From positions 864,001-928,000 of the forward strand of contig CAXXLL010000003.1 in the NCBI GenBank assembly GCA_963662545.2: a DNA stretch of 64,000 nt, given 5' to 3'. The translations under genes were made by a program, and so were the position numbers. Source of the DNA: Gammaproteobacteria bacterium (lineage in GTDB: Bacteria > Pseudomonadota > Gammaproteobacteria > Ga0077536). Within the stretch, counting starts at the first letter, position 1; each line of letters opens with the position of its first letter. Positions 23,204 to 60,931 of the stretch are shown piece after piece. The notes beneath the pieces are model-generated. The model saw only the letters and a program-made list of their open reading frames with translations, did no database searches and was not told where the DNA came from.

Positions 23204-23335
23204 ATGACCGCTATGGCCGAGAGCCGACCTGCTCGGCTAACGTTCTAGTGAAAGCAACTCCATGACCGCTTACGAGCGCATTGCAGACGTAATCTAGAAC
23301 GGTGATGCACTGCCGCGAGGCGGCCGCTAACGACC
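23204..23335 (+). repeat. Triple-palindrome repeat R1 (site C split by IS1182; remainder at 25020-25035)
   Basis: ATGACCGCTATGGCCGAGAGCCGACCT-31nt-ATGACCGCTTACGAGCGCATTGCAGACGT-29nt-GCGGCCGCTAACGACC. Confidence 0.9.
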
Positions 23336-25019
23336 CAGAGTGTGTGAAAACTCGGAATGAAGAGGAATCACGTCGAGAACTCCTCGTCAGACGCAACGCG
23401 GCGCGGTTCGACGGCCGCGCTCGCGGTCCAATGCGATCGGTTAGTTAATGGAACATTCCTTAGAACGGCCCCAGAAGCCGGCAGTGAAGCCGTGGATCAG
23501 GGAGTTTTCGAGGCCACAGAGGGTCTCATGCCGTCATCGCTTCGATGAGCGTAGCGACACCCAGTAGATTCATCACGCGTTTCATGTTGTAAGCGAGCAC
23601 GTGCAGACTCATTTCCGTACCAACGTGTTTCAGCGTGCGCATCTGGAAGTGGGTCGAACCCATCCAGGATTTGATCGTGCCAAACGGATGCTCGACCGTC
23701 TCTCGGCGGACACGCATAGGGTCAGGTTCACGATCCAATCGCGCCTGCACCGCTTCAACAACCGCTTCATGTTCCCAACGGCTGACGCGCCGGTATCGAC
23801 CCGTTGTGCATTTAGATTTGATCGGGCAGCGGGGACACGCCGAACTCCAGTAGCGCTGGATTTGCTTGCCTTTCTCCACTCGGGTAAACCGGTAAATCAG
23901 TCGCTCACCGGCCGGGCATTCATACGCATCCTCTTCGGGTTGGTAAATGAAGTCGCGCTTGCCAAACAAGCCCTTCGCCTGGTTACCCGAGGTCTGCGGT
24001 TTCGGCAGATAGGTCGTGATGCCGGCTTTAGCGCACGCCAAGATCTCTTCGCCACTGAAGTACCCGCGATCCGCAACGACGGTCAACTCCTTCTTATCCA
24101 GCGCCTCTTTGGCTTTCTCCGACATGTTCGACAGTTGCGCCCGGTCATGACCTACGTTCGTCACTTCATGTGCCACAATCAGATGACTCTTCGTGTCGAC
24201 CGCCGTCTGCACGTTGTACCCCACCATGCCGCTGCCACGGCCGCTCGTCGCCATCGAGCGCGCGTCCGGGTCCGTCAGTGAGACCTGATGGTCCGGCGTC
24301 TCCTCGAGCCGTACCTCGAGCTTTTTTAGGCGGCCTATCTCTTCCTTCAGTACCTCGATCTTGTCCTTCAAACGCTGCGACTTGTCACCTGACACCGCAC
24401 GCTCCTGGCGGTCGGCACTTGCAATTTCCGCCAGGTACCGCTCAACGCTCTCGTCAATCTGCTGCAACCGACGTTTCAGCTTCGCCTTCGTGAAGTTCCG
24501 GTCACGGTTGTTTACCGCTTTGAACTTGCTGCCATCTATCGCCACGAAGGCTTCCGAAAACAGCTGCAGCTTACGGCACAGCATCACGAACTCCCGGCAT
24601 ACCAGACGAATGGCGTCACCGTTATCTTTGCGGAAATCGGCAATGGTCTTGAAATCAGGCGCCAGACGACCCGTCAGCCACATCAGTTCCACGTTCCGCT
24701 GCGCCTCCCGTTCCAGGCGACGGCTCGATTGAACCCGGTTCAGGTAACCGTAGATATAGAGCTTCAGCATCGTCGCCGGGTGATACCCCGGTCGACCCGT
24801 CTCATGCGCATCGGTTCTGAAACTCAGACCTGACAGATCCAACTCATCGACGAACACATCGATGACCCGCACCGCACTCTCCTCAGCGACATAATCGTCC
24901 AGACACTCGGGAAACAGCGTTGTTTGGCGGCGGTCCGCGCCTTCAATGAACCCGCTCATCAACGACTCCCCAGGACCGAAAGAGTGATCTTATCTGATGC
25001 AGAGTTTTCACACACTCTG
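23336..25019 (-). mobile_element. IS1182-family element, copy 1
   Basis: TIR CAGAGTGTGTGAAAACTC/GAGTTTTCACACACTCTG, GACC target duplication. Confidence 0.92.
23526..24962 (-). CDS. IS1182-family transposase
   Basis: GRPGYHP..LKLYIYGY, SSRRLE, PDFKTIADFR, IDGSK, ADRGY, VEHPFGTIK. Confidence 0.93.
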   Translation of the reverse strand: MMSGFIEGADRRQTTLFPECLDDYVAEESAVRVIDVFVDELDLSGLSFRTDAHETGRPGYHPATMLKLYIYGYLNRVQSSRRLEREAQRNVELMWLTGRLAPDFKTIADFRKDNGDAIRLVCREFVMLCRKLQLFSEAFVAIDGSKFKAVNNRDRNFTKAKLKRRLQQIDESVERYLAEIASADRQERAVSGDKSQRLKDKIEVLKEEIGRLKKLEVRLEETPDHQVSLTDPDARSMATSGRGSGMVGYNVQTAVDTKSHLIVAHEVTNVGHDRAQLSNMSEKAKEALDKKELTVVADRGYFSGEEILACAKAGITTYLPKPQTSGNQAKGLFGKRDFIYQPEEDAYECPAGERLIYRFTRVEKGKQIQRYWSSACPRCPIKSKCTTGRYRRVSRWEHEAVVEAVQARLDREPDPMRVRRETVEHPFGTIKSWMGSTHFQMRTLKHVGTEMSLHVLAYNMKRVMNLLGVATLIEAMTA

Positions 25020-25248
25020 GACCCATAGCGGTCTTGTTGCACTTCGATGTTTAATCTCCTCACTAGCTCCTCGGTCCGCGAACCCGTCGTCAAAGGTGAC
25101 CGATTGCGATGATGATGGACGTTATACTTTCGATACGCCGACCGTCTGGCTGGCGCCGGACGATGCGGACAGGACGCTCGGGATCATCGATGCCGCTGTG
25201 CCACCTATTTCAGAAAACGCCTAGCAACCAATTTCAGGGGCACCGACG

Positions 25249-25896
25249 ATGCATTCGAACGTTTTTTGTCTCCAATCGATTCTCTGGGCAGTAATACTAC
25301 TGGTCTCGTTGCTCGCCGCCCCGGATCACTCCGCGGTGGCGGAATCGATCATCGAGCCAGAGCCCGATCCGTGGTTCACGTGCCGATTCGAGATCTTCCC
25401 CGACTCGCTGCCGGCCGGCGTGGAGGTCTCCGTGTCCAAAGGCCATGCGAACTGCGACGGTTTCGTTTTCAGTAACTCGTCCGCCACGCCGTTCATCGTC
25501 GCGTGACGCTCGCGGTCGTACACGACGTCGAACGTCGAATTGCCCGGCAATCTCTTCACATCGTGGATGGTAAAGGACGGCAAGCAGTTCGAGCCCGCCC
25601 CGCGAGCGATGGACGATTCACGCGTCCCGCGCCCCGAGGTCGTCGTTTCGGCATTCGGCACCCGGTGGATAGAAGCGGCCTACGTCTCCGCCTACGGGCG
25701 TCATTACGTCGGCAAAATGTCCGACGGCTTCGAGTTCGTCGACGTTCGCGAGGACGATCGGCCTGTGGACGTCGCCATCCCCGAGCCGACCGCATTCGCG
25801 TTCACCGCGTTTTACGGGGCGACCCCGGTGACCATCAGGGGGCGCGCCGTCTACGCACTGAATCCGGATTACGATCCGAACGCCGGCAAGGAGTGA
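25249..25896 (+). pseudogene. Exported hypothetical protein with one in-frame TGA (25504-25506)
   Basis: ORFs 25249..25506 and 25540..25896 share a frame, separated only by TGA; signal-peptide-like N terminus. Confidence 0.55.
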
Positions 25897-25900
25897 ACCA

Positions 25901-26025
25901 TGGGGAAACGACACTTGAAATTGGATCTAATTGGAACGCCGATCCCTTTTCAGAGTGCTTAACTACTATGCTGGTGGGGAACTTTTTACTTCCGTCGTCG
26001 TATTTTTGAGTTTTCACACAGCCTC
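25901..26025. mobile_element. Truncated diverged MITE-A variant ending at GGCC of R2 site A
   Basis: AAATTGGATCTAATT...GAGTTTTCACACAGCCTC followed by GGCC. Confidence 0.75.
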
Positions 26026-26145
26026 GGCCGTGAGCCGTCGCTGTTCACCGTCACGCCGCTGAACGCTATTGGACGACCGCTTAGAGCGCATTGCAGACGT
26101 AATCCTTGGCAGTGTTGTGCTGCCGCGACAAGGCGGCTAACGACC
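26026..26145 (+). repeat. Triple-palindrome repeat R2 (remainder at 26306-26321)
   Basis: GGCCGTGAGCCGTCGC..GACCGCTTAGAGCGCATTGCAGACGT..GGCGGCTAACGACC. Confidence 0.88.
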
Positions 26146-26305
26146 CAGACTGTGTGAAAACTATTTTCATTTTTCAAAAGTGGGGGAACTACCCTCGAAA
26201 TTGGATCTAATTGAAATGCCGATCCCTATTCGAGGGGCATAACAACTATGCTGGTGGGGAATATTTTTATTTCGTCGTCGTATTTTTGAGTTTTCACACA
26301 CTCTG
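26146..26305. mobile_element. MITE-A (160 bp) sharing IS1182 TIRs, copy 1
   Basis: CAGACTGTGTGAAAACT...AGTTTTCACACACTCTG with GACC duplication; near-identical copies elsewhere. Confidence 0.9.
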
Positions 26306-26396
26306 GACCCATAGGCGACATTGGGCAGGCTGTAATGGTTGCCCTATAGTTGCGCGTATATGCTGCTCCCATCAATTCACCATAAAGGGGAGCATC

Positions 26397-26861
26397 ATGG
26401 AAGCATTCAATTGGGAAGCTGTAATTGCGATTTCAGAATCATTAGGTTTAGTGGTTGTCATCGGCTCGCTAATCTATGTTGGTTTTCAAGTTCGTCAAAA
26501 CACGGCGATGATGAGGGTAAACGCCTCTCAAGCATGGACGGATTTCAACTTTCAATTATCAGGCCCAATTGCGGTGGATCGCGAGGTTGCGGAATGCTGG
26601 ACCCGTGGCGGTTCGAACTTTGACGATCTGGATGAAGTCGATCGAAATCGGATGGTTTTTTTTGAATGGCGCGCTATCGAGGCATGGCACCATATGTACG
26701 AGACGCACGAACAAGGGATGCTACCCACGTCCCAATGGCATAAGCTCATTTGGATATTGGAAAACCTTGGGGAACGAGAATCAATACGAGCATCTTGGAA
26801 GCAATTCCGGGGCGCTTACGACGAAAACTTCCAAGACTTTGTGACCAGTCATTTTGGATAG
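26397..26861 (+). CDS. Small membrane-anchored protein, 'MNW' paralogue 1
   Basis: NWEAVIAISESLGLVVVIGSLIYVGFQVRQN; RBS GGGGAG upstream. Confidence 0.85.
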   Translation: MEAFNWEAVIAISESLGLVVVIGSLIYVGFQVRQNTAMMRVNASQAWTDFNFQLSGPIAVDREVAECWTRGGSNFDDLDEVDRNRMVFFEWRAIEAWHHMYETHEQGMLPTSQWHKLIWILENLGERESIRASWKQFRGAYDENFQDFVTSHFG

Positions 26862-26917: not shown

Positions 26918-27040
26918 ATATTCGGAGTTGGCCGAGAGCCACCCCTAAACATGGTTGCGTCGCCGAACGCTACGGGACGGCCGCTTACGAGCGCATTGCA
27001 GACGTAATCCACCGCTGTGCTGAGGGGGCCGCTGACGACC
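26918..27040 (+). repeat. Triple-palindrome repeat R3 (internal deletion in linker 2, site C truncated)
   Basis: TGGCCGAGAGCC..CGGCCGCTTACGAGCGCATTGCAGACGTAATC..GGCCGCTGACGACC. Confidence 0.85.
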
Positions 27041-27055
27041 TTTTCTAGCAATTAT

Positions 27056-27562
27056 TCACCATGTGCCGAGGGTCCATTTCCCTGTTTCCTGATCCATTAC
27101 CACAACGGGTATCGGTTCAAGTTCTCTCATTTCATTAATGAACTCCGGTACGAAATATTGCGCCGCAGCTTGCCACCATTCGACGAAACCAGGAAGACCA
27201 ATGGCCACCGCCAAGAACTGGCGCTCTGCAAGCCAAACGCTTTCTTCTACGAGCCCACTTTTGCGTTGTAAATACACGTCTTGAAAATGTGATACGTAAT
27301 TCAACATCGAAGAGGTGAAACGTTGAGCATCATTTTCATCCATCGAATCGCCACGAATACCGGCGATAAAAATGGCTGTAACCTCTTTGCTTTCAACCAG
27401 CTTGTTAGAAAAATCCGAGCGTCTCGTGACAAGATCGTGGTAACTCTGTTGCCGAGAGGATTTGCTGCTCTGGCGAATTTGTACCGCAAGATACGCAAGA
27501 GTTAAAACAACCGCGGCCGCGCCTACGAGTTCACCAATGGCGCCCAATGCATCCCAGTTCAT
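27056..27562 (-). CDS. Small membrane-anchored protein, 'MNW' paralogue 2
   Basis: MNWDALGAIGELVGAAAVVLTLAYLAVQIRQ..G...W..PG..WW..F..EF. Confidence 0.88.
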   Translation of the reverse strand: MNWDALGAIGELVGAAAVVLTLAYLAVQIRQSSKSSRQQSYHDLVTRRSDFSNKLVESKEVTAIFIAGIRGDSMDENDAQRFTSSMLNYVSHFQDVYLQRKSGLVEESVWLAERQFLAVAIGLPGFVEWWQAAAQYFVPEFINEMRELEPIPVVVMDQETGKWTLGTW

Positions 27563-27622: not shown

Positions 27623-27755
27623 ATATCTACTTCCGACCGAGAGAGGAACTCAGCGTTCGTAGCCGATATAAATTTGGCTCGACGACCGCTTACGAGCGCA
27701 TTGCAGACGTAACCTAGAGCGGTGCTGCACTGCGGCGAGGGGGCCGCTGCCGACC
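27623..27755 (+). repeat. Triple-palindrome repeat R4 (remainder at 27916-27931)
   Basis: Degenerate site A, 31-nt linker, ACGACCGCTTACGAGCGCATTGCAGACGT, GGCCGCTGCCGACC. Confidence 0.85.
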
Positions 27756-27915
27756 CAGACTGTGTGAAAACTATTTTCATTTTTCAAAAGTGGGGGAACT
27801 ACCCTCGAAATTGGATCTAATTGAAATGCCGATCCCTATTCGAGGGGCATAACAACTATGCTGGTGGGGAATATTTTTATTTCGTCGTCGTATTTTTGAG
27901 TTTTCACACACTCTG
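27756..27915. mobile_element. MITE-A copy 2
   Basis: Matches 26146-26305; GACC duplication. Confidence 0.9.
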
Positions 27916-27999
27916 GACCCGTTGCAGACATTATCGAAATTAGCCGGTTCGTGAATCCACCTATATTCTTCCCGTTCAGTCCACATCGGGGAGAAAACC

Positions 28000-28524
28000 A
28001 TGGAGGCAATGAATTGGGACGCCCTCGGCGCTATCGCCGAAACGATTGGAGTACTCGCTGTCATCGCGACACTGGGGTACCTCTCAATACAAATTCGCCA
28101 GAGCAATCGCCAAGAAGCGGTGCAAGCGGTTAAGGAAGCAGTCAATGAATTTGTTAATGCCTTTGCTGCCGCAACGTCTGACGAATCCAAGGCTGAGAAT
28201 TTTCGAGCTGGATTAAACCAATTTGACGCGTTGACACGCAACGAAAAAGCCGTTTTCCATTCGAAAATGCAGCTATTGTCAAGTGGCTATTACCAGGTAT
28301 GGACTATGTATAAGAGCGGAATGTTGGCGGACGAAGATCTGTTCGTGAAAAGTGAAAACTTACTTTTATCGTTTTTGCTGTCACCGGGAGGGCGTCAATG
28401 GTGGGAGGCTTACAAACATCTCCCGCCCGAATCTTTTAAGGACCATATGGACAGCCGAATGAAGGAGGAACACCTGAATATAACGCCAGCTAACGAGGAT
28501 TTGGACTGGTGTAAAAATGATTAA
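28000..28524 (+). CDS. Small membrane-anchored protein, 'MNW' paralogue 3
   Basis: MNWDALGAIAETIGVLAVIATLGYLSIQIRQ..SPGGRQWW. Confidence 0.88.
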   Translation: MEAMNWDALGAIAETIGVLAVIATLGYLSIQIRQSNRQEAVQAVKEAVNEFVNAFAAATSDESKAENFRAGLNQFDALTRNEKAVFHSKMQLLSSGYYQVWTMYKSGMLADEDLFVKSENLLLSFLLSPGGRQWWEAYKHLPPESFKDHMDSRMKEEHLNITPANEDLDWCKND

Positions 28525-28570: not shown

Positions 28571-28715
28571 CTATCCGTTCGTGGCCGCGGGCCGAAGTCC
28601 TCTCTTAATACCAATCTGGAGGCTGCGGGACGACCGCTTACGAGCGCAGTGCTGCCGTAATCTAGAGCAGTGCTGCGCTGCCGCGATAAGGCGGCTGACG
28701 ACCCACTTCGGTCAT
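28571..28715 (+). repeat. Triple-palindrome repeat R5 (intact, 145 bp)
   Basis: TGGCCGCGGGCCGAAGT..GACCGCTTACGAGCGCAGTGCTGCCGT..GGCGGCTGACGACCCACTTCGGTCAT. Confidence 0.9.
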
Positions 28716-28744
28716 CCGCCCGATCTTCACCAAAGAGCCACAAC

Positions 28745-32229: not shown

Positions 32230-33011
32230 CGAAATTAAAAAACATCAACCCGGGTGGATCCATCTGGGTTTTTGCTTTAGGCAGCGGTGAAAATAACAGC
32301 ACGCTTTCAGCAGACACCATTCCGCCACCCGTGATACCGAAAACACAACTCGTTCGGGATGATAAAACGACCTGGTCCGACACGATAAAACAAGGGGCCG
32401 CGCTCTACCAACAGGCCTGCTCGCATTGTCACGGGGTGGAGATGCGAACCTCTGGATCCACCTACGACCTGAGAGTGTTCCCTAAAGATGACAAACAACG
32501 GTTTATTGACGCCGTGACCAGAGGTAAAGGTGAAATGCCCGCCTGGGGAAATAAATTGTCAGAGCGGGAAATATCGACGATATATGAGTACGTGGTGCAC
32601 TAAGAAGTCTGTCGGCGGACGATAACCTTGAGCGAAAAACGGCGGTCACCTGTAGACCGGCATGTATATTCGACCCAGTTTCGTCAATGCAGTTATTGGG
32701 ACGCGCGATTTATCACGTCTTAGCGATGTACGAGAGCGGCATGTTGACCGATGAAGAGCTGTTTTCCAAAAGTGAAAGTTTATTTTTGTCCTTCTTGCTT
32801 GCACCGAGAGGAAAGCGGTGGTGGTAAGCCTACAAGCATTTGCCGCCCGAGGCACTCAAGACCCATGTCGATGGGCGCCGCAGTGAAGGACATTTGAACA
32901 TAACGCCGGCGAACGAAGATTTAAATTGGTACAAACTCGATTAGGGGGCGCCATCACCCCATCGACCTCGACGTACGAAACGCAAGATTGCTATTGATTC
33001 CGCGCTCGCGA

Positions 33012-33069
33012 ACGTCGCTTCCTGGCCGACCGCTATTGAGGGTACTGCAGACGTAATGCGTAGCAGTGC
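33012..33069 (+). repeat. Degenerate repeat R6 (site A fused to site B, truncated in linker 2)
   Basis: ACGTCGCTTCCTGGCCGACCGCTATTGAGGGTACTGCAGACGTAATGCGTAGCAGTGCTGC. Confidence 0.75.
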
Positions 33070-33296
33070 TGCGCGGCGGCGACCGCGTCCCGAGCGTAGA
33101 CGTTGGCGATGCCGGTGCCGACCCGAATACGCGTGGTTCGCGCAAGCAGGTAGGCGCAGGCAGCGAACGGTTCGCGGCCGCCGACCTCCGGCACCCATAA
33201 AGTGTCGTAACCGAGACCTTCGACCCGGCGGCCGTAATCATCGAGTTCATCAACGGGCATCCCGTCGGTGAACAGCAACACACTGTGCTTCGGCAT
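33070..33296 (-). pseudogene. N-terminal fragment of LLM-class flavin/F420 oxidoreductase
   Basis: VEGLGYDTLWVPE..GREPF..TTRIRVGTGIANVYARD, then runs into R6. Confidence 0.82.
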
Positions 33297-33307: not shown

Positions 33308-33856
33308 TCAGGCGTTGTTTCGGGCGGCGCGGTCAGCATCCGTGTTGATTGATTGGTTAGGCGTCTTCCCTAACTTTGCCATCTGTCCATCGACAACCAT
33401 TGCGAATTCGGGGGATACGTGTTCGATCAGGCTCTTCGCTCGGTGCCAGTCGTCAACCGCACTAGGGTTATTTTTGAAATAGCCGACAAGATAATCGACG
33501 TCTACTGACGTAGATTGTAAGGTCGCTGACGCGTGGCTACCCATGTACGCAAATGCGCAGGCGATATAAAGTTCTTCAAAGGCGGCGGAAATCTGGACCT
33601 TTTCGACCTCCGTAAGGGTTTCACCGGTATTTGCCTTGATAATGGCCTCAACTATCTCTGGACTGTTGATCAATATTCCGCGCCAGCGAGCATACGCTTC
33701 CGTTACGTAACCCGTCGCCTGCATCTGAGCGAATTTTGCACTCTGCTCTGCAGCTATGCGAGCTTGTCGAGTCTGAATCGCCAAATAGATAAGTGTGACG
33801 ATTATCGCCAACGCGCCGATAAATTCGGCGATTCCACTGATTGCGTCCCAGTTCAT
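33308..33856 (-). CDS. Small membrane-anchored protein, 'MNW' paralogue 4
   Basis: MNWDAISGIAEFIGALAIIVTLIYLAIQTRQ. Confidence 0.86.
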   Translation of the reverse strand: MNWDAISGIAEFIGALAIIVTLIYLAIQTRQARIAAEQSAKFAQMQATGYVTEAYARWRGILINSPEIVEAIIKANTGETLTEVEKVQISAAFEELYIACAFAYMGSHASATLQSTSVDVDYLVGYFKNNPSAVDDWHRAKSLIEHVSPEFAMVVDGQMAKLGKTPNQSINTDADRAARNNA

Positions 33857-33920: not shown

Positions 33921-34064
33921 ACGTCCGATGTTGGCCGACAGCCCTCGTCGTCATGGTCGCGTGATCGAACGCTGTTGAAAGACCGCTTACGAGCGCATTG
34001 CAGACGTAACGTATAGCAGTGCTGCACTGCCGCGAGGAGGCCGCTGAAGACCCTAAGCAGTCAT
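33921..34064 (+). repeat. Triple-palindrome repeat R7 (intact)
   Basis: ACGTCCGATGTTGGCCGACAGCCCTCGT..GACCGCTTACGAGCGCATTGCAGACGT..GGCCGCTGAAGACCCTAAGCAGTCAT. Confidence 0.9.
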
Positions 34065-34088
34065 CAGGGAGCGAAAATAAGTGCGTCC

Positions 34089-44474: not shown

Positions 44475-44498
44475 GGATGATGCATTTCAAATGTGAAC

Positions 44499-48442: not shown

Positions 48443-48581
48443 ATCTGCTCTCCAAGTTCGTTGTGCGAACGGGGACGGATAGCCGTCTCCGACATATTAC
48501 ACAGGCGTTGCTCCGACGCCGCTGTGATTCGATATCATTGCGCCGCTCTTTGTCTGCCAAGTGGCGCAGCGCGTCCAATTG

Positions 48582-49448: not shown

Positions 49449-49565
49449 ATTCGACTCCTCGCCACTATTGCTGTATGCCCACTGTCAAGAGTAACTCCGT
49501 TAGACACCCGCGCGCACTTCAAATCGATGCCCGTCGAATAATCGAGCTCAGAGCAACAACTCATA

Positions 49566-49873: not shown

Positions 49874-49979
49874 CCAAGCGAAATTTTCTCGACTTGCTGG
49901 CTGAGTTGACCGAGAGTCTCCCAGAGCGCCCGCGAAGAACATTGTACAATCCACTTCGACGCACAAGGGAGGAATCACC

Positions 49980-50357
49980 ATGTCAGAACGACACACCGAA
50001 CTTTACGCAATCACATTGAAATTCCTCGACGCATTCAATCGTAACGATCTCGATGACGTCATGTCATTTTTCTCCAATGAAGCCGTTTATGAAGAGCTGC
50101 ATGGCAAGATTAACGACGGCAAGGACGCGATTCGCGAAGCCTTTGTTCCCCAATTCGAAGGAAAGTTCGGCAAAATGGAGTTTATAGAAGACGACACTTT
50201 TATTGACGCTGACGCCGGCAAGATCATGAGCGGTTGGGATCTGCATATGGAAAAAGACGGCGGGCCAGTGGTGGTGAAAGGGCTTGATCTGCTTTACTTC
50301 GAGGGCGATAAAATTGTACGCAAGCAGACGTTTGTGAAGCAGAAAGATCCGTTGTAA
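49980..50357 (+). CDS. NTF2/SnoaL-like protein
   Basis: FLDAFNRNDLDDVMSFF..GKDAIR..GLDLL..KI..K. Confidence 0.87.
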   Translation: MSERHTELYAITLKFLDAFNRNDLDDVMSFFSNEAVYEELHGKINDGKDAIREAFVPQFEGKFGKMEFIEDDTFIDADAGKIMSGWDLHMEKDGGPVVVKGLDLLYFEGDKIVRKQTFVKQKDPL

Positions 50358-50472
50358 GAGAGACGCTCTGTAAGCCGGGGCCGAATCGACTCGATAAATA
50401 AATGGGGCCAAGCAAACACGACCGTGAACGCCGTGAATTTTTACTCTGGCCCCGAGGGATGAGGAGAGCGAG

Positions 50473-50967
50473 ATGACACTGCCTGATTCTGCAATCCTGC
50501 TCCGGCGTGGAGAGGGCGACTATGTGACCATCGGGACCGGCACTCGCTGTACCTTTAAGCTCAGGGGGGAAAACACGGACGGGCATTTCGGTCTGTTCGA
50601 GTATGTGATGGAGCCTGGGACTGAAGGACCGCGGCGCCATATCCATCGTCAGATGGCGGAAATCTTCTACGTGGTCGAAGGAGAGCTCGAATTCATCGTT
50701 GGAGACGAGAAGATCACGGCCCGGGCCGGTACGACCGCCCTCGTCCCCAAGGAGGTTGTGCATGCCTTTTCCAACCCGGGCCCGCAGCGCTCGGTGTTGC
50801 TGGTTATGTTTTGCCCGGCAGACTCGCGTGAGAAATACTTCGAGGGGCTGGCTGAACTCCTCAAAGACGGGCAAGCGTCGGATCAAGAAGCCTTACTGGA
50901 GTTGATGCGGCAACATGACACCGAGCCGGTGGCGGAACCGCTCTATGGAGAAATAGATGCGCCGTAA
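50473..50967 (+). CDS. Cupin domain protein
   Basis: HIHRQMAEIFYVVEG..VPKEVVHAFSN. Confidence 0.9.
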   Translation: MTLPDSAILLRRGEGDYVTIGTGTRCTFKLRGENTDGHFGLFEYVMEPGTEGPRRHIHRQMAEIFYVVEGELEFIVGDEKITARAGTTALVPKEVVHAFSNPGPQRSVLLVMFCPADSREKYFEGLAELLKDGQASDQEALLELMRQHDTEPVAEPLYGEIDAP

Positions 50968-51019
50968 AGGAAGCTAGTGTGCTGTCCCGCAAGAAACTTA
51001 CGCTCAAATAAATCTGTCC

Positions 51020-52372
51020 CTGAAGGCTCCCCACGAATTGAAGGAGAATTCACATAAAAAATAGCCATTTAGAAAAATAAATAGCGAACAATAGGGAACA
51101 TGCATGACGTTCGGTGATCAATAACGGTGACGAAACCAAATTGGTCACGGGAGAACGCCATGCATGCACTGAGATTGTTGCACAAAATAATGGGGCAAGC
51201 CTGTCCGCAGATACACGCGGTAAGGCTAACGGCATTGATGGCGAGCGTTGAGGCCCTTTTGGTCGGCCGTCAGATGAGCTTAGCCGGTCTTGGTCGCGCC
51301 TTGCTGTCGGGGGCGCGAGTCAAACACAACATCAAGCGAGTCGACCGGTTAATTGGCAACCGTCATCTGTGGGGAGAACGAACGGAACTCTATGGGGCGA
51401 TGGCGGGGCTGGTGCTTGGACAAGGACCACGTCCGGTAATTATTCTGGACTGGTCGGATATGCGCGAAGATCGGTCATGGCAGTTGTTGCGTGCGGCGGT
51501 TCCGGTGGGAGGCCGTTCACTGACGCTCTACGAAGAAGTACATCCCTTGTCGGCGTATGACAACCGGGGTGTCAGGAAACGGTTTCTGGAGCGTCTTCGA
51601 GAGATCTTACCACCGGGGTGTCGCCCGCTCTTAGTCACGGATGCCGGCTTCCGGACGACTTGGTTTAGACAGGTCGAAGCAATGGGTTGGGACTGGGTCG
51701 GTCGGGTCCGCGGGCGCACCCATTTCCGGCTGGACAACCAGGCAAGCTGGCAACCGTGCCGGACGTTGCATGCGATGGCCAACTCACGTGTGCGGCATAT
51801 CGGGACAGTCGAACTAACGGTATCGAATCCATTGGCCTGTGACCTGTACCTGGTGAAGAAGAAAAAGCGTGGCCGTCAACAACTGACCTGCCGCGGCACG
51901 CGTGCCCGTGGTGGCCGCAGCCTTAGCTGTGAACGACGCCAGCGCGAACCCTGGATATTGGTCACCTCACTGGGGTCGCGCGCGGCCCAGCAGGTGATGC
52001 GGTGTTATCAGTTGCGCATGCAGATTGAGGAGAGTTTCCGGGATATGAAAAATGCCCGTTTGGGACTGCACTTCCGCAGCGCGCGTTCCAACAGCGCCGA
52101 GCGGCTCTCGATCCTCGTCCTGATTGGTACGTTGGCAACATTAGTCGCTTGGTTAGTCGGCCAAGCGATGCAGCGTTTCGGGCTGCAGCGCCATTACCAG
52201 GCCAATACAACCCGGCATCGGCCGGTACTCTCCACCGTCTTTCTGGGCTTGCAAAGTTTTTGCAGGCAACCCGTAAAGCTTATGCTGGCAGACATCAAGC
52301 AATCGATTATCGCCTTACACCAAAATACCGCAAACCCGTTGCGTTATGCGTAAGTTCGTGGGGATCCTTCAG
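51020..52372 (+). mobile_element. IS4-family (IS10-like) element B
   Basis: TIR CTGAAGGCTCCCCACGAA / TTCGTGGGGATCCTTCAG, 9-bp duplication AATCTGTCC. Confidence 0.92.
51160..52353 (+). CDS. IS4-family transposase
   Basis: KHNIKRVDRL, LDWS, TDAGF, YQLRMQIEESFRDMK. Confidence 0.93.
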   Translation: MHALRLLHKIMGQACPQIHAVRLTALMASVEALLVGRQMSLAGLGRALLSGARVKHNIKRVDRLIGNRHLWGERTELYGAMAGLVLGQGPRPVIILDWSDMREDRSWQLLRAAVPVGGRSLTLYEEVHPLSAYDNRGVRKRFLERLREILPPGCRPLLVTDAGFRTTWFRQVEAMGWDWVGRVRGRTHFRLDNQASWQPCRTLHAMANSRVRHIGTVELTVSNPLACDLYLVKKKKRGRQQLTCRGTRARGGRSLSCERRQREPWILVTSLGSRAAQQVMRCYQLRMQIEESFRDMKNARLGLHFRSARSNSAERLSILVLIGTLATLVAWLVGQAMQRFGLQRHYQANTTRHRPVLSTVFLGLQSFCRQPVKLMLADIKQSIIALHQNTANPLRYA

Positions 52373-52385
52373 AATCTGTCCCCTT

Positions 52386-52507
52386 TGGCAGAGAGCCGAA
52401 GTTGCCGCCGCCGCTCACTGTTACGTAAGTCGAGTGACCGCTTACAAGCGCATTGCAGACGTAATCTAGGGCGGTGCTGCACTGCCGCGATTAGGCCGCT
52501 GACGACC
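52386..52507 (+). repeat. Triple-palindrome repeat R13 (left arm of site A absent; remainder 54193-54208)
   Basis: TGGCAGAGAGCCGAAGT..TGACCGCTTACAAGCGCATTGCAGACGT..GGCCGCTGACGACC. Confidence 0.88.
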
Positions 52508-54192
52508 CAGAGTGTGTGAAAACTCGGAATGAAGAGGAATCACGTCGAGAACTCCTCGTCAGACGCAACGCGGCGCGGTTACGACGGCCGCGCTCGCGGT
52601 CCAATGCGATCGGTTAGTTAATGGAACATTCCTTAGAACGGCCCCAGAAGCCGGCAGTGAAGCCGTGGATCAGGGAGTTTTCGAGGCCACAGAGGGTCTC
52701 ATGCCGTCATCGCTTCGATGAGCGTAGCGACACCCAGTAGATTCATCACGCGTTTCATGTTGTAAGCGAGCACGTGCAGACTCATTTCCGTACCAACGTG
52801 TTTCAGCGTGCGCATCTGGAAGTGGGTCGAACCCATCCAGGATTTGATCGTGCCAAATGGATGCTCGACCGTCTCTCGGCGGACACGCATAGGGTCAGGT
52901 TCACGATCCAATCGCGCCTGCACCGCTTCAACAACCGCTTCATGTTCCCAACGGCTGACGCGCCGGTATCGACCCGTTGTGCATTTAGATTTGATCGGGC
53001 AGCGGGGACACGCCGAACTCCAGTAGCGCCGGATCTGCTTGCCTTTCTCCACTCGGGTGAACCGGTAAATCAGTCGCTCACCGGCCGGGCATTCATACGC
53101 ATCCTCTTCGGGTTGGTAAATGAAGTCGCGCTTGCCAAACAAGCCCTTCGCCTGGTTACCCGAGGTCTGCGGTTTCGGCAGATAGGTCGTGATGCCGGCT
53201 TTAGCGCACGCCAAGATCTCTTCGCCACTGAAGTACCCGCGATCCGCAACGACGGTCAACTCCTTCTTATCCAGCGCCTCTTTGGCTTTCTCCGACATGT
53301 TCGACAGTTGCGCCCGGTCATGACCTACGTTCGTCACTTCATGTGCCACAATCAGATGACTCTTCGTGTCGACCGCCGTCTGCACGTTGTACCCCACCAT
53401 GCCGCTGCCACGGCCGCTCGTCGCCATCGAGCGCGCGTCCGGGTCCGTCAGTGAGACCTGATGGTCCGGCGTCTCCTCGAGCCGTACCTCGAGCTTTTTT
53501 AGGCGGCCTATCTCTTCCTTCAGTACCTCGATCTTGTCCTTCAAACGCTGCGACTTGTCACCTGACACCGCACGCTCCTGGCGGTCGGCACTTGCAATTT
53601 CCGCCAGGTACCGCTCAACGCTCTCGTCAATCTGCTGCAACCGACGTTTCAGCTTCGCCTTCGTGAAGTTCCGGTCACGGTTGTTTACCGCTTTGAACTT
53701 GCTGCCATCTATCGCCACGAAGGCTTCCGAAAACAGCTGCAGCTTACGGCACAGCATCACGAACTCCCGGCATACCAGACGAATGGCGTCACCGTTATCT
53801 TTGCGGAAATCGGCAATGGTCTTGAAATCAGGCGCCAGACGACCCGTCAGCCACATCAGTTCCACGTTCCGCTGCGCCTCCCGTTCCAGGCGACGGCTCG
53901 ATTGAACCCGGTTCAGGTAACCGTAGATATAGAGCTTCAGCATCGTCGCCGGGTGATACCCCGGTCGACCCGTCTCATGCGCATCGGTTCTGAAACTCAG
54001 ACCTGACAGATCCAACTCATCGACGAACACATCGATGACCCGCACCGCACTCTCCTCAGCGACATAATCGTCCAGACACTCGGGAAACAGCGTTGTTTGG
54101 CGGCGGTCCGCGCCTTCAATGAACCCGCTCATCAACGACTCCCCAGGACCGAAAGAGTGATCTTATCTGATGCAGAGTTTTCACACACTCTG
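52508..54192 (-). mobile_element. IS1182-family element, copy 4 (transposase 52699..54135)
   Basis: Same TIRs, GACC duplication, ORF identical to copy 2. Confidence 0.93.
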
Positions 54193-54330
54193 GACCCACA
54201 GCGGACATTAACGATATTGGATATATCGCTATATGGGGATCAGGTCCCGTATGCGTCTTTATAAGTCCGTAGGCTGGCAAAAGCACTCCATAATTGTTGG
54301 AGTGTAAGACTTGATCCCAATCTAACTTCT

Positions 54331-55159: not shown

Positions 55160-55292
55160 ATGGCGGCTTTTAGCCGAGAGCCGTCCTGCTCAGCTAACGT
55201 ACCACCGAACGCTACGGGACGACCGCTTACGAGCACATTGCAGACGTAATCCTTACCTGTGTTGCACTGCCGCGATGAGTCGGCTCACGACC
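55160..55292 (+). repeat. Triple-palindrome repeat R14 (remainder 55453-55468)
   Basis: ATGGCGGCTTT-TAGCCG-AGAGCCGTCCT..GACCGCTTACGAGCACATTGCAGACGT..GTCGGCTCACGACC. Confidence 0.9.
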
Positions 55293-55452
55293 CAGACTGT
55301 GTGAAAACTATTTTCATTTTTCAAAAGTGGGGGAACTACCCTCGAAATTGGATCTAATTGAAATGCCGATCCCTATTCGAGGGGCATAACAACTATGCTG
55401 GTGGGGAATATTTTTATTTCGTCGTCGTATTTTTGAGTTTTCACACAGTCTG
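55293..55452. mobile_element. MITE-A copy 4
   Basis: Same 160-bp sequence; GACC duplication. Confidence 0.9.
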
Positions 55453-55641
55453 GACCCGAAGGAGACACTGGCGAAAATCGAATAACCCATCCTGACAGTT
55501 TCGAGTAGGGGAAAGTTAGCTGCGAGCGTAATGTGGCAATGCAAGACTCCCCCCATTTATTAATTTCGATCGGGTGAGTTCCACAGAAGGGTAGACCGCC
55601 GGAAAAGGGTTAAGTCACTGTTTCAGAGACGATTAGCGCTT

Positions 55642-55930: not shown

Positions 55931-56650
55931 ATGACCGACAAGGACGCAGGGAACAAACCCGGCCACGATAGAACCAGCGAGATAACACTAGAGACTGGTG
56001 GCGACCCTGCTGGTGAACGCCAGAAAACCTTCAGCCGACGAGCGCTGCTCGAAGCCGGTTGGAGCGTGCCGCTGATTGCGGCGGTGCAGTTTCCGAGCGA
56101 TGCGTTCGCGGTGTCGGTACCGACCCATGCCGACTCCCCGGACCACAGCGATACTTTCCCGCACGAGGATAGCGCGAACCCGCATCAAGACACCAATCAC
56201 AGCGACGGTTTTGCTCATAACGACAGCGGCGACCCGCACCAAGATTCACACCAGGATGGAGCGGTGGTTCACGTCGACGATGTGGTGCCGCACAATGATT
56301 TTTTCAGTCCGCACGATGATGATTCGGCATTTGGTACGCACGACGACGAGGGCGGACACTTCGATATTCAACACAGCGATAGCCCGACCCACATTGATTC
56401 TTTCAGTCCGCACGATGACGATTCGGGATTTGGTACGCACGACGACGGGGGCAGACACTTCGATAAAACCCACGGAGATATCCCACCGCCTCACATTGAT
56501 CGTTTAACCCTAGATGATGATGAGCACGACGACACGCCTCCCACACACGATGACAATCCCCACGCCGATGTAGCTCAGCATGACGATATAGCAGCGCCCC
56601 ACTACGACAACGGACCGCACGACGACACGGACCATGGGGATGGGCCGTAG
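55931..56650 (+). CDS. His/Asp-rich repeat protein with RR-type leader
   Basis: SRRALLEAGWSVPLIAAV leader followed by >20 H-x-D triplets; RBS GGAGGGG. Confidence 0.82.
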   Translation: MTDKDAGNKPGHDRTSEITLETGGDPAGERQKTFSRRALLEAGWSVPLIAAVQFPSDAFAVSVPTHADSPDHSDTFPHEDSANPHQDTNHSDGFAHNDSGDPHQDSHQDGAVVHVDDVVPHNDFFSPHDDDSAFGTHDDEGGHFDIQHSDSPTHIDSFSPHDDDSGFGTHDDGGRHFDKTHGDIPPPHIDRLTLDDDEHDDTPPTHDDNPHADVAQHDDIAAPHYDNGPHDDTDHGDGP

Positions 56651-56795: not shown

Positions 56796-57181
56796 GCGAT
56801 TCGCATGTCGGCTAATGTTAAGGGTTGTCAGATGCCTGCCGTAGACAGTGGACGGACTGGGTCGAGAGGGTGGGGGCAGGCGTCTGACAAGCCTCAAGGG
56901 AGGAAACCGCGGGAGAAGAACGCCGGCGCGTTGGTCGGCACGGTGCTATGGGGATTTGAGGGTGGCGTTGTTCGGATTGATATGATCGGTAGCCAACGGC
57001 AAGCGGTGTGTCGGGCAAGAACGGGTCAGCGTGCAATGAGGTGGGTGGGTGACCGGACGTTGAGGAGCGGGATCGGTACCGCTATGTGGTTTCGTCACGG
57101 CGCCAAGCAAGACGGTAACGTTGCCGGTGGTAAAGCGGCGATTTGTGGGCTGGTGGGCTGGCGAGTTCGAACGGTCGAGGG

Positions 57182-58375
57182 TCAAGGTGGGTCGCCTCCG
57201 CGGTGCGGTGGTGCACAGGGCGCGTGACCGGGCTCGAAGGTGTCGATGATGTGCATCGCACCTCCACAGGACGGACAGCGTAGCCAGTCGGGTGTCGCCT
57301 CATCAGTGTTGTCGTTGTCGTTGACATCTTGGGGTGTCTCGATGCCGAGCAGAGCGCGGACCTTTGCGAGGTTCTCGGTGCGCCCGCCGTTTGCGAACAA
57401 CCCGTAATGGCGAATGCGATGGAAGCCGTGGGGTAGGACGTGGATGAGGAAGCGGCGGATGAACTCGCCGGTCTCGAGCGACAGGGTCTTGTAGCGGTTC
57501 TCCTGCTGGGCGCGATAGTCCTTCCACTTGAAGCTCACGCGTTGTTGGTCGAAGGTGATGAGACGCGAGTTAGCGATGGCGACGCGGTGGGTATATCGGG
57601 CGAGGTATTCGAGCACCGCGGCGGGTCCGGCGAAGGGCGGGCGGGCATCAACGACCCACTCGCGTTTACGCAACGCAGTGAGGAACTCGGCGAAGGCGTG
57701 CGGGTCTTCGAGTCCCTGGTATTGGCCGAAGAAGGCCAACTGTCCGCCCGCGTGGAGTTCACCCAGTTGGCCGAGGAACAGGCGTCGGAACAACCGCGAG
57801 AGCACCCGCACCGGTAAGAAGAAGTTGGGCCGACAGGCGAGCCAACGCACGCCGTCGAGCGAGAGCCCGCCGCCAGGCACGATGCAGTGCAGATGGGGAT
57901 GATGGGTCATGGCCGAGCCCCAGGTATGCAGCACGGCGGTGAGCCCCAGGCGTGCCCCGAGGTGTTTGGGATCGGCCCCGATGGTGAGCAAGGTCTCGGC
58001 GGCGGCTTTGAACAAGAGGTTGTAGATAACGGCCTTGTTCTGATAGGCGAGGTTGCCGATCTCTGCCGGCACCGTGAACACGACGTGGAAGTACGCGACC
58101 GGTAGCAGCTCGGCTTCGCGCGCGGCAAGCCATTGCCTGGCCACTGCGCCCTGGCACTTCGGGCAGTGCCTGTTACGGCAGGAGTTGTAGGCGATCTCGA
58201 TGTGGTCACAGGCGTCGCAGTGCACAACGTGGCCGCCGAGCGCTGCGCTACGACAGCGCTCGATGGCCGACATGACCTTCAGCTGCCCGAGACTGAGGTG
58301 TCCGGCGTGCGCATGACGCCAAGCCGGACCGTAGGCGCGGAAGATATCCGCGACCTCGAGCGGTTGCCGAGACAC
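57182..58375 (-). CDS. IS91-family rolling-circle (HUH/Y2) transposase
   Basis: Zn-binding YNSCRNRHCPKCQ, HUH motif HPHLH, YLARY, RIRHYG. Confidence 0.95.
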   Translation of the reverse strand: MSRQPLEVADIFRAYGPAWRHAHAGHLSLGQLKVMSAIERCRSAALGGHVVHCDACDHIEIAYNSCRNRHCPKCQGAVARQWLAAREAELLPVAYFHVVFTVPAEIGNLAYQNKAVIYNLLFKAAAETLLTIGADPKHLGARLGLTAVLHTWGSAMTHHPHLHCIVPGGGLSLDGVRWLACRPNFFLPVRVLSRLFRRLFLGQLGELHAGGQLAFFGQYQGLEDPHAFAEFLTALRKREWVVDARPPFAGPAAVLEYLARYTHRVAIANSRLITFDQQRVSFKWKDYRAQQENRYKTLSLETGEFIRRFLIHVLPHGFHRIRHYGLFANGGRTENLAKVRALLGIETPQDVNDNDNTDEATPDWLRCPSCGGAMHIIDTFEPGHAPCAPPHRGGDPP

Positions 58376-58388
58376 CTCACCCGCCGGG

Positions 58389-59279
58389 TCAGGCGGGCGG
58401 TCTCAACTCCAGGGTGAGATGTTCCAGTGGGCTCACGACCTCACGAAGCGTGCGCGTGGCGACCTGGGAGTACAGCGCGGTGGTCTCGAGCTTCTGGTGT
58501 CCGAGCAGCACCTGGATCACACGGATGTCGACCCCCTGCTCAAGTAAATGAGTTGCGAATGAATGGCGCAGCGTATGCAGCGACACGCGCTTATCGATGG
58601 TCGCTAGGTCCACCGCCGCATGACAGGCCCGGTTGAGCTGGCGGGTGGTCAGAGGGTTGACGGGGTTCTGCCCCGGGAACAGCCAGCCGTGGGGCCACAT
58701 CTTGCCCTGCGATGCAGCGCTGCGGTACCAGGTGCGCAACACCTTGAGCAAGGTCGGTGAGAGCATAGCGTAGCGGTCCTTGCGTCCCTTACCCTGCTCG
58801 ACGCGCAGGAGCTTGCGCTCACGGTCAATATCGGTGACTTTCAGCATGACTCCCTCGCCGGCGCGAAGGCCGGCGCCATAGGCGAGCGACAACGCCGCCT
58901 GGTACTTGATGCCGGGCGCGGCTTGTAACAGGCGCGCAACTTCCTCACCGCTCAAGACCACCGGGAGCTTACGTTCCACGTGCACGGTACTCATCCGTTT
59001 CATCGCATCGGGCCGCTCGAGGGAGATCTCAAAGAAAAAGTGCAAACCGGTGATGGTGGCGTTGATGGTCGTGCGAGACACGCCGGTGGAGACCATGTGA
59101 AGTTGATAACGCCGCAGGTCTTCGCTACCGGCGGTGTCGGGAGAACGGGCGAGAAAGCGGGTGAAATTCTTGACCGCACGGATATAGGCTGTCTGTGTTT
59201 TCTCAGAGAGCTTACGAAGGCGCATGTCGTCGTGCATGCGTTGACGCAACGGGCTGATAGAATGCTTGTTCTGGGTCAT
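58389..59279 (-). CDS. Tyrosine recombinase (N-terminal SAM-like domain; XerD/IntI-related)
   Basis: Catalytic set GLR, GKGRKDR, HTLRH, LLGH, TALY; no obvious IntI-specific insertion. Confidence 0.93.
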   Translation of the reverse strand: MTQNKHSISPLRQRMHDDMRLRKLSEKTQTAYIRAVKNFTRFLARSPDTAGSEDLRRYQLHMVSTGVSRTTINATITGLHFFFEISLERPDAMKRMSTVHVERKLPVVLSGEEVARLLQAAPGIKYQAALSLAYGAGLRAGEGVMLKVTDIDRERKLLRVEQGKGRKDRYAMLSPTLLKVLRTWYRSAASQGKMWPHGWLFPGQNPVNPLTTRQLNRACHAAVDLATIDKRVSLHTLRHSFATHLLEQGVDIRVIQVLLGHQKLETTALYSQVATRTLREVVSPLEHLTLELRPPA

Positions 59280-59449
59280 GGGTCTGTTCCTTGTGTTGAG
59301 TTGCATGTCGCAAACCAACATCAACACGGGACAGACCCTTCCCGTCAATCCATCGCTAACGCCTGGTGAAACCTCCCCCTACCGCGCGAGCGGTTTAGTC
59401 CCTTGGCCGTAAGCCGTCATGGTCAAGTGTGGGATTCGCATCGTCGGTG

Positions 59450-59476
59450 ATGGCTGCTTTCGGGTAAAGCGGACGT
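59450..59476 (+). repeat. Single palindromic site 29 nt beyond the split site
   Basis: ATGGCTGCTTTCGGGTAAAGCGGACGT; same arm pattern and spacing as the triple repeats. Confidence 0.7.
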
Positions 59477-59935
59477 GGGCTATATCGACGCTTCTTATTC
59501 CTCTTTCACACCCTCCGGCCATAGCGCCTTACCCAATATGGTCATCGTTACAGCATTCCCAATGAGAACAAACATGAACATTGTTGTCGATTCTAACGGC
59601 GCTGCTTCGGCTCCTCTCACACATATCCAGTAGCCGAGTGTTACTCCGTACAGGTTGCCGACACCTACGCAAACGCGTAGATAGGCTTTTTAGCGTTTGT
59701 CCATAACGGCCCCTTTTGGGAGAGACTATAGACACGGCTCAGATATGGGCGGCACGGTATTGGAGGACATGGCGGAGAAAGTTTAAGGGGATGGCCAAAA
59801 AAGGCTGTCACAGTGACAGGCTTTCCGAGTTTGGCATTTCGCATACCCAAGCCTCCCGCTGAATGCAAATAGCCAAGGTGCCGGAGAAGCCACAGCCAAA
59901 ACTGTGTAGTATTAATACACGATTCGGCATTAACT

Positions 59936-60265
59936 CTATCGCAGCGTTTGACGGTATATGTATAGCGGCCCCGAGCTTCTTATGAAGCCTATCCCGCATT
60001 CATAATCACCTTGGCGTAAGTTCGGATCTCCGTGCTTTGCCGCCCTCTGGTATACCCACTCCCGGCATTCCTCGAGGCTTCCTAAATCGGGCTGCCTTTC
60101 ATAATCGGTCAGGTTTGCGGCATCGGGATAGTAAGTCGCGTCAATGTCTTCCCACGGCGCTGCGGCTTCCGACCAGAACACATTGGCAATATCATTTCCG
60201 GGGCTTCCGAATAAGGCCCATCCCGCCACCCATCCCGCCAATACGGCAAGCACAATCCAGTGCAT
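59936..60265 (-). CDS. Hypothetical membrane-anchored protein
   Basis: N-terminal TM; APWE..YYPD..SLEECR..DYECG. Confidence 0.65.
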   Translation of the reverse strand: MHWIVLAVLAGWVAGWALFGSPGNDIANVFWSEAAAPWEDIDATYYPDAANLTDYERQPDLGSLEECREWVYQRAAKHGDPNLRQGDYECGIGFIRSSGPLYIYRQTLR

Positions 60266-60354
60266 TTAATCTTCCCGTCTGGACCGATTATAGGCCGCCA
60301 GTAAGCGCCGTCAGCGGTGAATTGCAAAGTCGGCATTGCACCGGGCGTCAGCAG

Positions 60355-60696
60355 TTACCGGCGCATACGTTCCGCACCAAACACCCGATTGTAGATTTCA
60401 CTTGTCGGCGCCCTCCGTGTCCCCGAGTTATAGTGACCGTGGCGGCTGTTGAGATATCCAACGTATGCGAGGCAGGCCAGCGATTCCAGGGCACACCGGG
60501 AGGCGTGTATACAGTCGTCGCAGGGTGCCGGCGGTACTTTCTTGATGGCGTAAGCGAGCGCCGGCAACAGATCGTCGTATGTTTCTACAGAAAGCTCGCC
60601 GTCGTCCATGTCGCGCATATTACGCGCTTCTGATCTTGGGTAGCCGCCTGTAGTGCGTTCTAAGCGACGTTCTCTCCTCGTCCCATACCGTGGCAT
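60355..60696 (-). CDS. Hypothetical Cys-containing protein
   Basis: RBS GAGGGG; PCDDC...RC....LAC. Confidence 0.45.
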   Translation of the reverse strand: MPRYGTRRERRLERTTGGYPRSEARNMRDMDDGELSVETYDDLLPALAYAIKKVPPAPCDDCIHASRCALESLACLAYVGYLNSRHGHYNSGTRRAPTSEIYNRVFGAERMRR

Positions 60697-60786
60697 CCCC
60701 TCGTTCTGGCCCTGGGGGACACTGATGCTGATTGCGTTGCTGTGTCCCGGAGCCGGTGACCACAGCGCTGTGAAGCATTAGGCAGT

Positions 60787-60931
60787 ACGTCTCTTCTTTG
60801 CCGAAAGCCGAAGTCCTTCTTCAACACGATGCTGACGGCTACTCGACGATCGCTTACGAGAGCATTGCAAACGTAACGTTTAGCACTGCTGCACCGCGGC
60901 GAGGGGGCCGCTGCCGACCTACAGCGGACGT
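60787..60931 (+). repeat. Triple-palindrome repeat R15 (intact, 145 bp)
   Basis: ACGTCTCTTCTTTGCCGAAAGCCGAAGT-31nt-ACGATCGCTTACGAGAGCATTGCAAACGT-29nt-GGGGCCGCTGCCGACCTACAGCGGACGT. Confidence 0.9.

Follow-up and report, generated by a model that had tools for sequence, protein, structure and literature searches.

Integrons are the textbook case of site-specific gene capture; they use folded single-strand attC sites and the integrase IntI, their cassette genes are typically co-oriented, and clusters of attC sites without an integrase are known as CALINs. The 64,000-nucleotide stretch analysed here (the window) comes from a marine gammaproteobacterium whose 5.58-Mb genome (58% G+C) is assembled in three contigs. 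It corresponds to positions 864001-928000 of contig C3, and C2 denotes another contig of the same genome. The window carries an array of 145-bp repeat units that separate segments of cargo. A comparison of such arrays with sedentary chromosomal integrons and CALINs reveals a common plan of long co-oriented arrays, mostly single-gene cassettes and a lineage-specific terminal repeat of approximately 100-150 bp. The resemblance extends to the occurrence of the same cassettes in different arrays, to arrays without an adjacent integrase, to sites targeted by insertion sequences (ISs) and to a cargo of small uncharacterised proteins and accessory enzymes. The arrays belong to a known kind, namely gene-cassette arrays bounded by recombination sites. 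A major difference is that the 145-bp units have neither attC boxes nor a hairpin, comprise three duplex-type dyads, have no IntI nearby and enclose cargo of unbiased orientation, whereas genuine integrons are present separately in the same genome.

Three other systems share features with the units. The res sites of Tn3-family transposons, the Xer sites cer and psi and the IRS of Tn4430, on which TnpI acts, span approximately 115-250 bp and combine a crossover site with accessory sites; like them, the units hold several imperfect dyads of one motif within approximately 120-145 bp, and direct repeats would give deletion circles. Such sites occur once per replicon or transposon, beside their recombinase, whereas the units exceed 100 copies and delimit cargo. 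The pdif modules of Acinetobacter plasmids are likewise bounded by 28-bp dyads and have their recombinase encoded elsewhere, but pdif sites are dif-like and alternate in orientation, whereas the units are co-oriented, triple-site and unrelated to the dif of this genome. Finally, repetitive extragenic palindromes (REPs), the bacterial interspersed mosaic elements (BIMEs) built from them and their tyrosine transposases (RAYTs) form a system that also features composite palindromic units in intergenic DNA that are preferred IS targets; REPs and BIMEs are dispersed through core intergenic regions, whereas the units keep to 13 fixed-polarity arrays, in which they bound exchangeable segments. The parts of the literature returned by full-text searches contain no description of such a repeat or system. 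The units are interpreted here as the sites of a lineage-specific, attC-independent cassette system driven by site-specific recombination, a reading given a probability of roughly 50%.

The 15 same-orientation copies (R1-R15) listed in the initial annotation are all recovered on the forward strand, both by repeat finding, which places the conserved core within positions 23,258-60,903 of the window, and by an nhmmer profile built from these copies and then run over the whole genome, which matches them within 23,203-60,932 at E values of 1e-17 to 1e-31. The profile has no match at positions 1-23,200 or 60,933-64,000, in agreement with the reported absence of copies from the core region, and the copies described as intact at 28571, 45087 and 60787 have the sequence attributed to them. 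The array had been taken to end at 60,931. It in fact continues beyond the window with two further units, at C3:929881 and C3:930665 (window-equivalent positions 65,881 and 66,665), and is closed by a terminal site A at C3:933152 (window-equivalent 69,152).

The internal structure of the unit was defined with an alignment of 52 unique copies free of any filter-detected end of an IS or miniature inverted-repeat transposable element (MITE), drawn from 77 full-length copies (74 unique). The proposed three-site layout is upheld, and the order is site A, approximately 30 variable nucleotides that sort into a few subfamilies, site B, a conserved palindrome and site C. The 15-bp palindrome GCAGTGC-T-GCACTGC between B and C is an addition to the elements first listed. 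Sites A, B and C are versions of one 28-bp dyad motif that consists of a 9-bp arm similar to ATGTCCGCT, 3 nt, a 5-bp core, 2-3 nt and an inverted 9-bp arm similar to AGCGGnCAT. The core sequence differs between the sites (A, GGCCG; B, GAGnG; C, GACCC), and the site centres are spaced approximately 59 bp (A to B) and 58 bp (B to C) apart. An 11-6-11 geometry had been proposed for the sites; the 28-bp dyads stand, and the clean 11-6-11 division does not, because breakpoints and target duplications map to a centre of 5 bp inside a 10-bp spacer. The site B block of approximately 31 nt and an 18-nt palindrome block are nearly identical in most copies.

The units of the window are as follows, with coordinates accurate to a few bases.

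23203-23336, forward strand: R1, with A, B, the palindrome and the left half and core of C; C is interrupted at its core by an IS1182-family IS, beyond which its right arm resumes near 25022
26024-26146, forward strand: R2, with a MITE end abutting the A core and a MITE inserted at the C core
26918-27041, forward strand: R3, with a 10-nt deletion in the palindrome region
27623-27756, forward strand: R4, with a MITE at the C core
28571-28717, forward strand: R5, intact, with A, B, the palindrome and a complete C
32987-33091, forward strand: R6, degenerate, covering profile positions 13-117
33921-34066, forward strand: R7, intact
40421-40544, forward strand: R8, with MITEs at both the C core and the A core, the latter with GGCCG as target duplication
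42036-42169, forward strand: R9, with IS1182 at the C core
45087-45233, forward strand: R10, intact; closes a cupin/SnoaL cassette common to the array at C3:356-359 kb
45864-45997, forward strand: R11, with IS1182 at the C core
49739-49875, forward strand: R12, with a MITE at the A core and C intact; closes a nitroreductase/MOSC cassette also found in the array at C2:1620-1624 kb
52375-52508, forward strand: R13, with IS1182 at the C core
55160-55293, forward strand: R14, with a MITE at the C core
60787-60932, forward strand: R15, intact

The site motif is common to more than one repeat family, as two other short element families also start with site A and then depart from the sequence of the 145-bp unit. 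The first has 6 copies of approximately 150 bp, and the second is a two-site unit ending in GCGGACGTGGGYTATATCGACGCTTC. Loci of these families are the following.

C2:246886-247080, C2:1116031-1116175, C2:1218038, C2:1609073 and C3:1279407: elements starting with site A
Window 59402-59500, and C3:933152 onward: further elements starting with site A

Over the whole genome, the profile identifies 116 copies at E<1e-5. An even spread in the manner of a REP or MITE, which would be at odds with a capture platform, is not observed: when gaps below 20 kb are joined, 110 of the copies fall into 13 clusters and 6 are solitary. Eleven of the 13 clusters are uniform in strand, and the largest spans 93 kb and comprises 32 copies. 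When one copy is used as a BLAST query, 4 of 41 genomes are matched, including that of the window. Both same-genus genomes carry co-oriented arrays of the unit (in one, 14 copies on a single strand over 44 kb), and the sole match among the 38 other relatives is 22 nt long, in one genome. Exact-pattern scans return 5 loci in a collection of genome contigs and 20 in a collection of metagenome contigs, with a full unit by profile in three loci of each; the remaining loci match site B alone, at close to the estimated chance rate. On the basis of the BLAST search over 41 genomes, the contig scans and the clustering in the genome, the repeat is restricted to one genus-level lineage and is clustered, unlike a dispersed REP or MITE.

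When the arrays are cut at the C cores, 97 inter-unit segments result, and an all-against-all comparison reveals that several of them, IS copies not counted, are found again in a second array beside other neighbours. The segment C2:442897-445137 corresponds to C2:682789-685027 (95.7% identity over 2236 of 2241 nt), the cupin/SnoaL segment at window positions 43855-45220 to C3:356452-359328, and the nitroreductase/MOSC segment at 47687-49862 to C2:1620420-1622634. The terminal part of contig C2 and the initial part of contig C3 have two more segments in common. The same cassette is therefore found in different contexts with its boundaries at the site. The last kilobases of C2 repeat cassettes and the IS91-type element of the C3 start, as a result either of genuine duplication or of an assembly joined through repeats.

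The breakpoints of the shared segments are informative at the left junctions and at site A. At the left junctions, identity begins just past the core of the upstream site C. A breakpoint directly after the A core is observed at C2:1116046 and C3:933152, where the two sequences are 99.6% identical over 2.4 kb up to ...GTCCGCAGTTGGCCG and unrelated thereafter. A second case is found at C2:247 kb, where cargo is joined via site A to a different element of 150 bp that also starts with site A; in a same-genus genome the equivalent locus has no insert, and the same two cargos stand in opposite order in one array. The partners at the left boundary and at the two site-A breakpoints share only approximately 16-20 nt around the 5-bp core. 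Because the partners at the site-A breakpoints share less than 20 nt, these sequences argue for a site-specific step. The capture and shuffling platform of the initial annotation is supported by cassettes that are common to arrays and bounded at cores, and by co-oriented clustering in three genomes; the role of the sites as tyrosine-recombinase core sites and conservative recombination at them by a particular enzyme, rather than homologous or IS-mediated exchange, are putative.

Several observations weigh against site-specific recombination at the units. The right boundaries of the shared cassettes vary, lying after site B, inside the palindrome or approximately 20 nt before the C core, as homologous exchange within conserved blocks would give. 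A multi-cassette block of 8.3 kb (window 45923-54197) recurs at C2:2578406-2586680 with 99.8% identity and carries identical IS1182 copies at both ends; recombination between these accounts for the cleanest multi-cassette transfer with no special enzyme. No excised circle and no pair of empty and occupied sites within one array is seen; the public runs examined, some of which contain 0.91-0.97 of the sampled words, consist of short contigs that break at the repeats, and their joints, such as 43869 to 45910 or the IS itself, carry no information on circles or deletions. No recombinase lies consistently beside the arrays, none is found at the array starts examined in the two same-genus genomes, and neither the small invertase-like recombinases nor the IS91-linked recombinase discussed below is found in those two genomes. 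The absence from the relatives is weak evidence, because both assemblies are incomplete (marker-gene completeness of 89 and 95%; sizes of 4.8 and 3.0 Mb, compared with 5.6 Mb). The only tyrosine recombinases present at 70% identity or more in all three genomes are XerC and XerD.

These observations are largely those expected if the unit is a REP/BIME-like repeat, selfish or host-recruited, that resides in accessory regions and undergoes RecA-dependent exchange between its blocks and between IS copies. The near-identical blocks of approximately 31 and 18 nt in most copies, the coincidence of the right boundaries with block ends, the IS1182 copies flanking the 8.3-kb block and the failure to find a dedicated recombinase all fit this explanation, and REPs are palindromic repeats known as targets of IS elements. 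It is nevertheless judged unlikely, as 110 of 116 copies form 13 clusters of fixed polarity rather than being dispersed, and the 16-20 nt shared at the left and site-A breakpoints are short for RecA exchange. In addition, the five Y1 (RAYT-type) genes examined have no such site within 1.5 kb of them. The variable right boundaries are compatible with either of two explanations, crossover at any of three cognate cores or homologous exchange in the B and palindrome blocks.

The cores at which cassettes join are also the positions at which mobile elements insert. An IS or MITE terminus abuts the C core in approximately 44 of 107 units with a complete 3' end (36 by terminus pattern, 5 related ends by eye and 3 of another element), and a MITE end lies at the A core in 11 of 81 units, with GGCCG duplicated. 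All four IS1182-family copies in the window are located in a C core with GACCC on both sides, and the approximately 14 copies in the genome likewise sit in the C core between GACCC sequences, in one orientation or the other. At least three MITE families home to the C and A cores together with IS1182, and they have related ends (..TGTGTGAAAAC, ..TGTCCGAAAAC and ..TGTTGAAAAAG). The elements inserted in the units of the window are listed below.

23335-25021, reverse strand: IS1182-family IS, 1687 bp, encoding a 478-aa DDE transposase; one of four window copies
42168-43854, 45996-47682 and 52507-54193: the other IS1182-family copies
Near 26147-26317, 27757-27927, 40545-40715 and 55294-55464: MITEs
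56816-59401, reverse strand: IS91-family element, inserted into a site A
57182-58375: Y2 transposase gene of the IS91-family element
58389-59348: Xer/IntI-like tyrosine recombinase gene of the IS91-family element

The site A interrupted by the IS91-family element retains its left arm at 56805-56815, and CTTG-GCCG and the right arm follow from 59402. IS91 elements target CTTG and GTTC, and at least four independent insertions of this element into a site A, beside a CTTG-like tetranucleotide, are present. IS91-type elements of this genome end in a conserved hairpin ACCGCG..AGCGGT plus TTTAGTCC; other loci are C3:6584-9421 and C2:613-629 kb, and at C2:627.5 kb two types follow each other in head-to-tail tandem. 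The terminus is conserved in homologs from three other genera, and one such homolog lies beside an attC array. Dead IS91-type genes (Y2 remnants, for example at C3:2046940, C3:2759395 and C3:2213858-2214059) are split by a small element beginning ACAAATTTATCTGGAATAAATTTGG. The IS91-type terminal motifs are found only at autonomous copies and not at the edges of mobilised segments, which argues against one-ended transposition of the latter.

The arrangement of arms and cores also suggests a different explanation, in which each cassette is a non-autonomous transposon with 9-bp terminal inverted repeats (AGCGGnCAT and ATGnCCGCT), subterminal sites A and B and a 5-bp target duplication, and arrays grow by end-adjacent insertion. 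The arms that flank a cassette are indeed inverted repeats, the shared core has the 5-bp length of a target duplication, and multiple subterminal sites at one end recall the ends of Tn7 or Mu. This explanation appears rather improbable. Neighbouring cassettes share one core rather than having two each, no transposase is associated with the arrays, a solitary site without a cassette exists at C2:486.6 kb, and the IS91-type termini do not extend beyond the autonomous copies.

The units are not attC sites, in accordance with the initial annotation. The RYYYAAC...GTTRRRY end boxes are missing from the alignments of both 15 and 52 copies, and no unit matches an attC profile. Two integron integrases of the genome score above the curated cut-off, at C2:996723 and C3:1527239, and lie 112 and 65 kb, respectively, from the nearest unit. 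One of them adjoins a textbook array of 10 attC sites of approximately 115 bp each with CCTAAC...GTTAGG ends; only one attC site is near the integrase at C3:1527239. A profile of the 10 resident attC sites retrieves approximately 55 attC sites in several arrays, none of which overlaps a unit. In single-strand folding, the attC sites of the genome reach z-scores of -7.7 and -8.7, whereas three units, folded on both strands, range from -2.0 to +1.2 and fold no better than shuffled sequences. Array polarity is unrelated to the sign of the GC skew, and there is accordingly no sign of a strand-specific single-strand mechanism. A search of the whole window against Rfam at the gathering threshold returns only a tRNA-Met.

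It follows from these comparisons that a role of the units as unusual attC sites served by one of the two integrases is extremely improbable. Such a role could draw on the two IntI proteins above the cut-off, of which that at C3:1527239 has a single attC nearby, and on an attC remnant within one cassette. The missing end boxes, the lack of a single-strand hairpin and the 65- and 112-kb distances oppose it, as does the orientation of the cargo. Cargo had been described as lying in either orientation, and among 31 single-gene-sized cassettes genome-wide, 14 have their longest ORF on the same strand as the unit and 17 on the opposite strand. Ordinary integrons of the genome include those at C2:982-996 kb and C3:1917-1950 kb and others, with approximately 28 sites in the largest attC array. 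Clusters of attC sites abut two of the 145-bp arrays (C2:433-437 kb and C3:2543 kb), and cargo therefore seems to pass between integrons and the 145-bp arrays.

Recognition by the host Xer system was considered in the same manner. A fuzzy search locates a single canonical dif site, at C2:2180004, two mismatches from the gammaproteobacterial consensus; it is close to a sign change of the C2 GC skew. Sites A-C share neither the XerC arm nor the XerD arm of this site, and because the single dif of the genome is unrelated to them, dif-type recognition of the units is unlikely, as judged from sequence. A hijacking of Xer, in which the units are recombined by XerC and XerD of the host as in pdif modules or integrative mobile elements exploiting Xer (IMEX), would account for the 28-bp dyads and for the fact that XerC and XerD are the sole tyrosine recombinases conserved in the three repeat-bearing genomes. 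Given the lack of similarity to either dif arm and the co-orientation of the units, where pdif modules alternate, this explanation is considered very improbable.

A number of candidates for a recombinase acting at the units can be set aside. The P4-type integrase at the upstream edge of the window array (array A8) has a counterpart beside only one other array (A0, at C2:72.8 kb), and the small open reading frame (ORF) downstream of it is unique. The Xer/IntI-like recombinase linked to the IS91-family element might be regarded as an integrase at its primary site, but the adjacent site A is explained by IS91-type insertion; a related element of another genus sits beside an ordinary attC array. 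The sole match in the genome to a serine recombinase or resolvase is broken by a stop codon. The Y2 transposase does not correlate with the repeat, being present in 16 of 41 genomes and only as fragments in the two same-genus genomes, and the distribution of the Y1 and Y2 HUH transposases is not telling. The protein families that recur near the arrays comprise only IS transposases, metabolic enzymes and a DUF4760-like membrane protein. The recombinases inside the arrays are without the IntI-specific segment (profile positions 179-237 are unmatched).

The best lead, by association, is a small catalytic-domain-only tyrosine-type DNA invertase similar to FimB and FimE, which is proposed as a candidate. 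Three paralogs are present that share the gene alone and not its flanks. Two immediately precede arrays (at C3:354.9 kb and C3:1449.9 kb) in the same orientation as these, and one of the two is disrupted by an IS; one copy of the gene spans C3:1447215-1447751. Downstream of the third, at C2:486760-487386, lie a terminator and a solitary site (C2:486.6 kb), and the 24-nt lead-in of this site recurs before the first cassette of the array at C3:1449 kb. For two of three genes to lie by chance no more than 2.5 kb upstream of any of 11 array starts, the estimated odds are roughly 2 in 100,000.

A mechanism for the proposed cassette system can be outlined. A cassette would start with the right half of a site C, continue with the cargo and end at the C core of the unit that belongs to it; the cargo would comprise a single gene or a small number of genes, oriented either way and with promoters of their own. 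Recombination between corresponding sites of adjacent units would release a cassette as a circle, which would then insert at a corresponding site in any array. The three duplex-type sites and the palindrome may form a nucleoprotein unit resembling that of res or cer, with crossover and accessory sites, rather than a folded single strand. The recombinase would act in trans, with the small FimB/E-like enzyme as the candidate. A fuller version of this model is advanced with somewhat less than even confidence: the organism would possess a second, integron-independent capture system with three alternative crossover sites and an accessory palindrome, a FimB/E-like recombinase acting in trans and approximately 100 cassettes in about a dozen arrays per genome, which would exchange cargo with integrons and be parasitised by IS1182, IS91-type elements and MITEs.

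The surroundings and the contents of the window array include the following features.

19923-19999, forward strand: tRNA-Met, at the upstream edge of the array
20173-21441, forward strand: P4-type integrase, at the upstream edge of the array
21442 onward, forward strand: small ORF, split by an IS481-family IS and ending 17 bp before R1
44424-44475, forward strand: short attC-type site of canonical form (TAACGC...GTTAGG) that separates the cupin gene from the SnoaL gene within a single cassette

The IS481-family IS at 21891-23092 encodes a 362-aa transposase and has the ends TGTGGGTGGCGAATTC; its four near-identical genome copies all lie within 16 kb of a 145-bp array. The most common array cargo is an 18-member family of proteins of approximately 170 aa with an N-terminal membrane helix, encoded in either orientation, of which five members are in the window (26211-26861, 27056-27562, 28000-28524, 33308-33856 and 45270-45812). 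The family has no Pfam hit and takes a position near the DUF4760 and DUF6082 clusters in a protein atlas. Two tandem repeats are also present, a 99-bp unit in two copies of 85% identity (56291-56484) inside the ORF at 55931-56650 and a 65-bp unit in two copies in the core region (12763-12892).

Should a dedicated enzyme and a duplex triple-site mechanism be confirmed, the arrays may prove to be categorically new. If the reading is correct, an unrelated composite duplex site in the same genome as ordinary integrons would indicate that cassette arrays evolved more than once, and a new pair of recombination site and enzyme would become available for study and tool building. Additionally, surveys based on attC would overlook a share of the mobile genes of marine bacteria. 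The attraction of three unrelated classes of transposable elements to the same 5-bp cores provides a handle on how mobile elements recognise active recombination sites.

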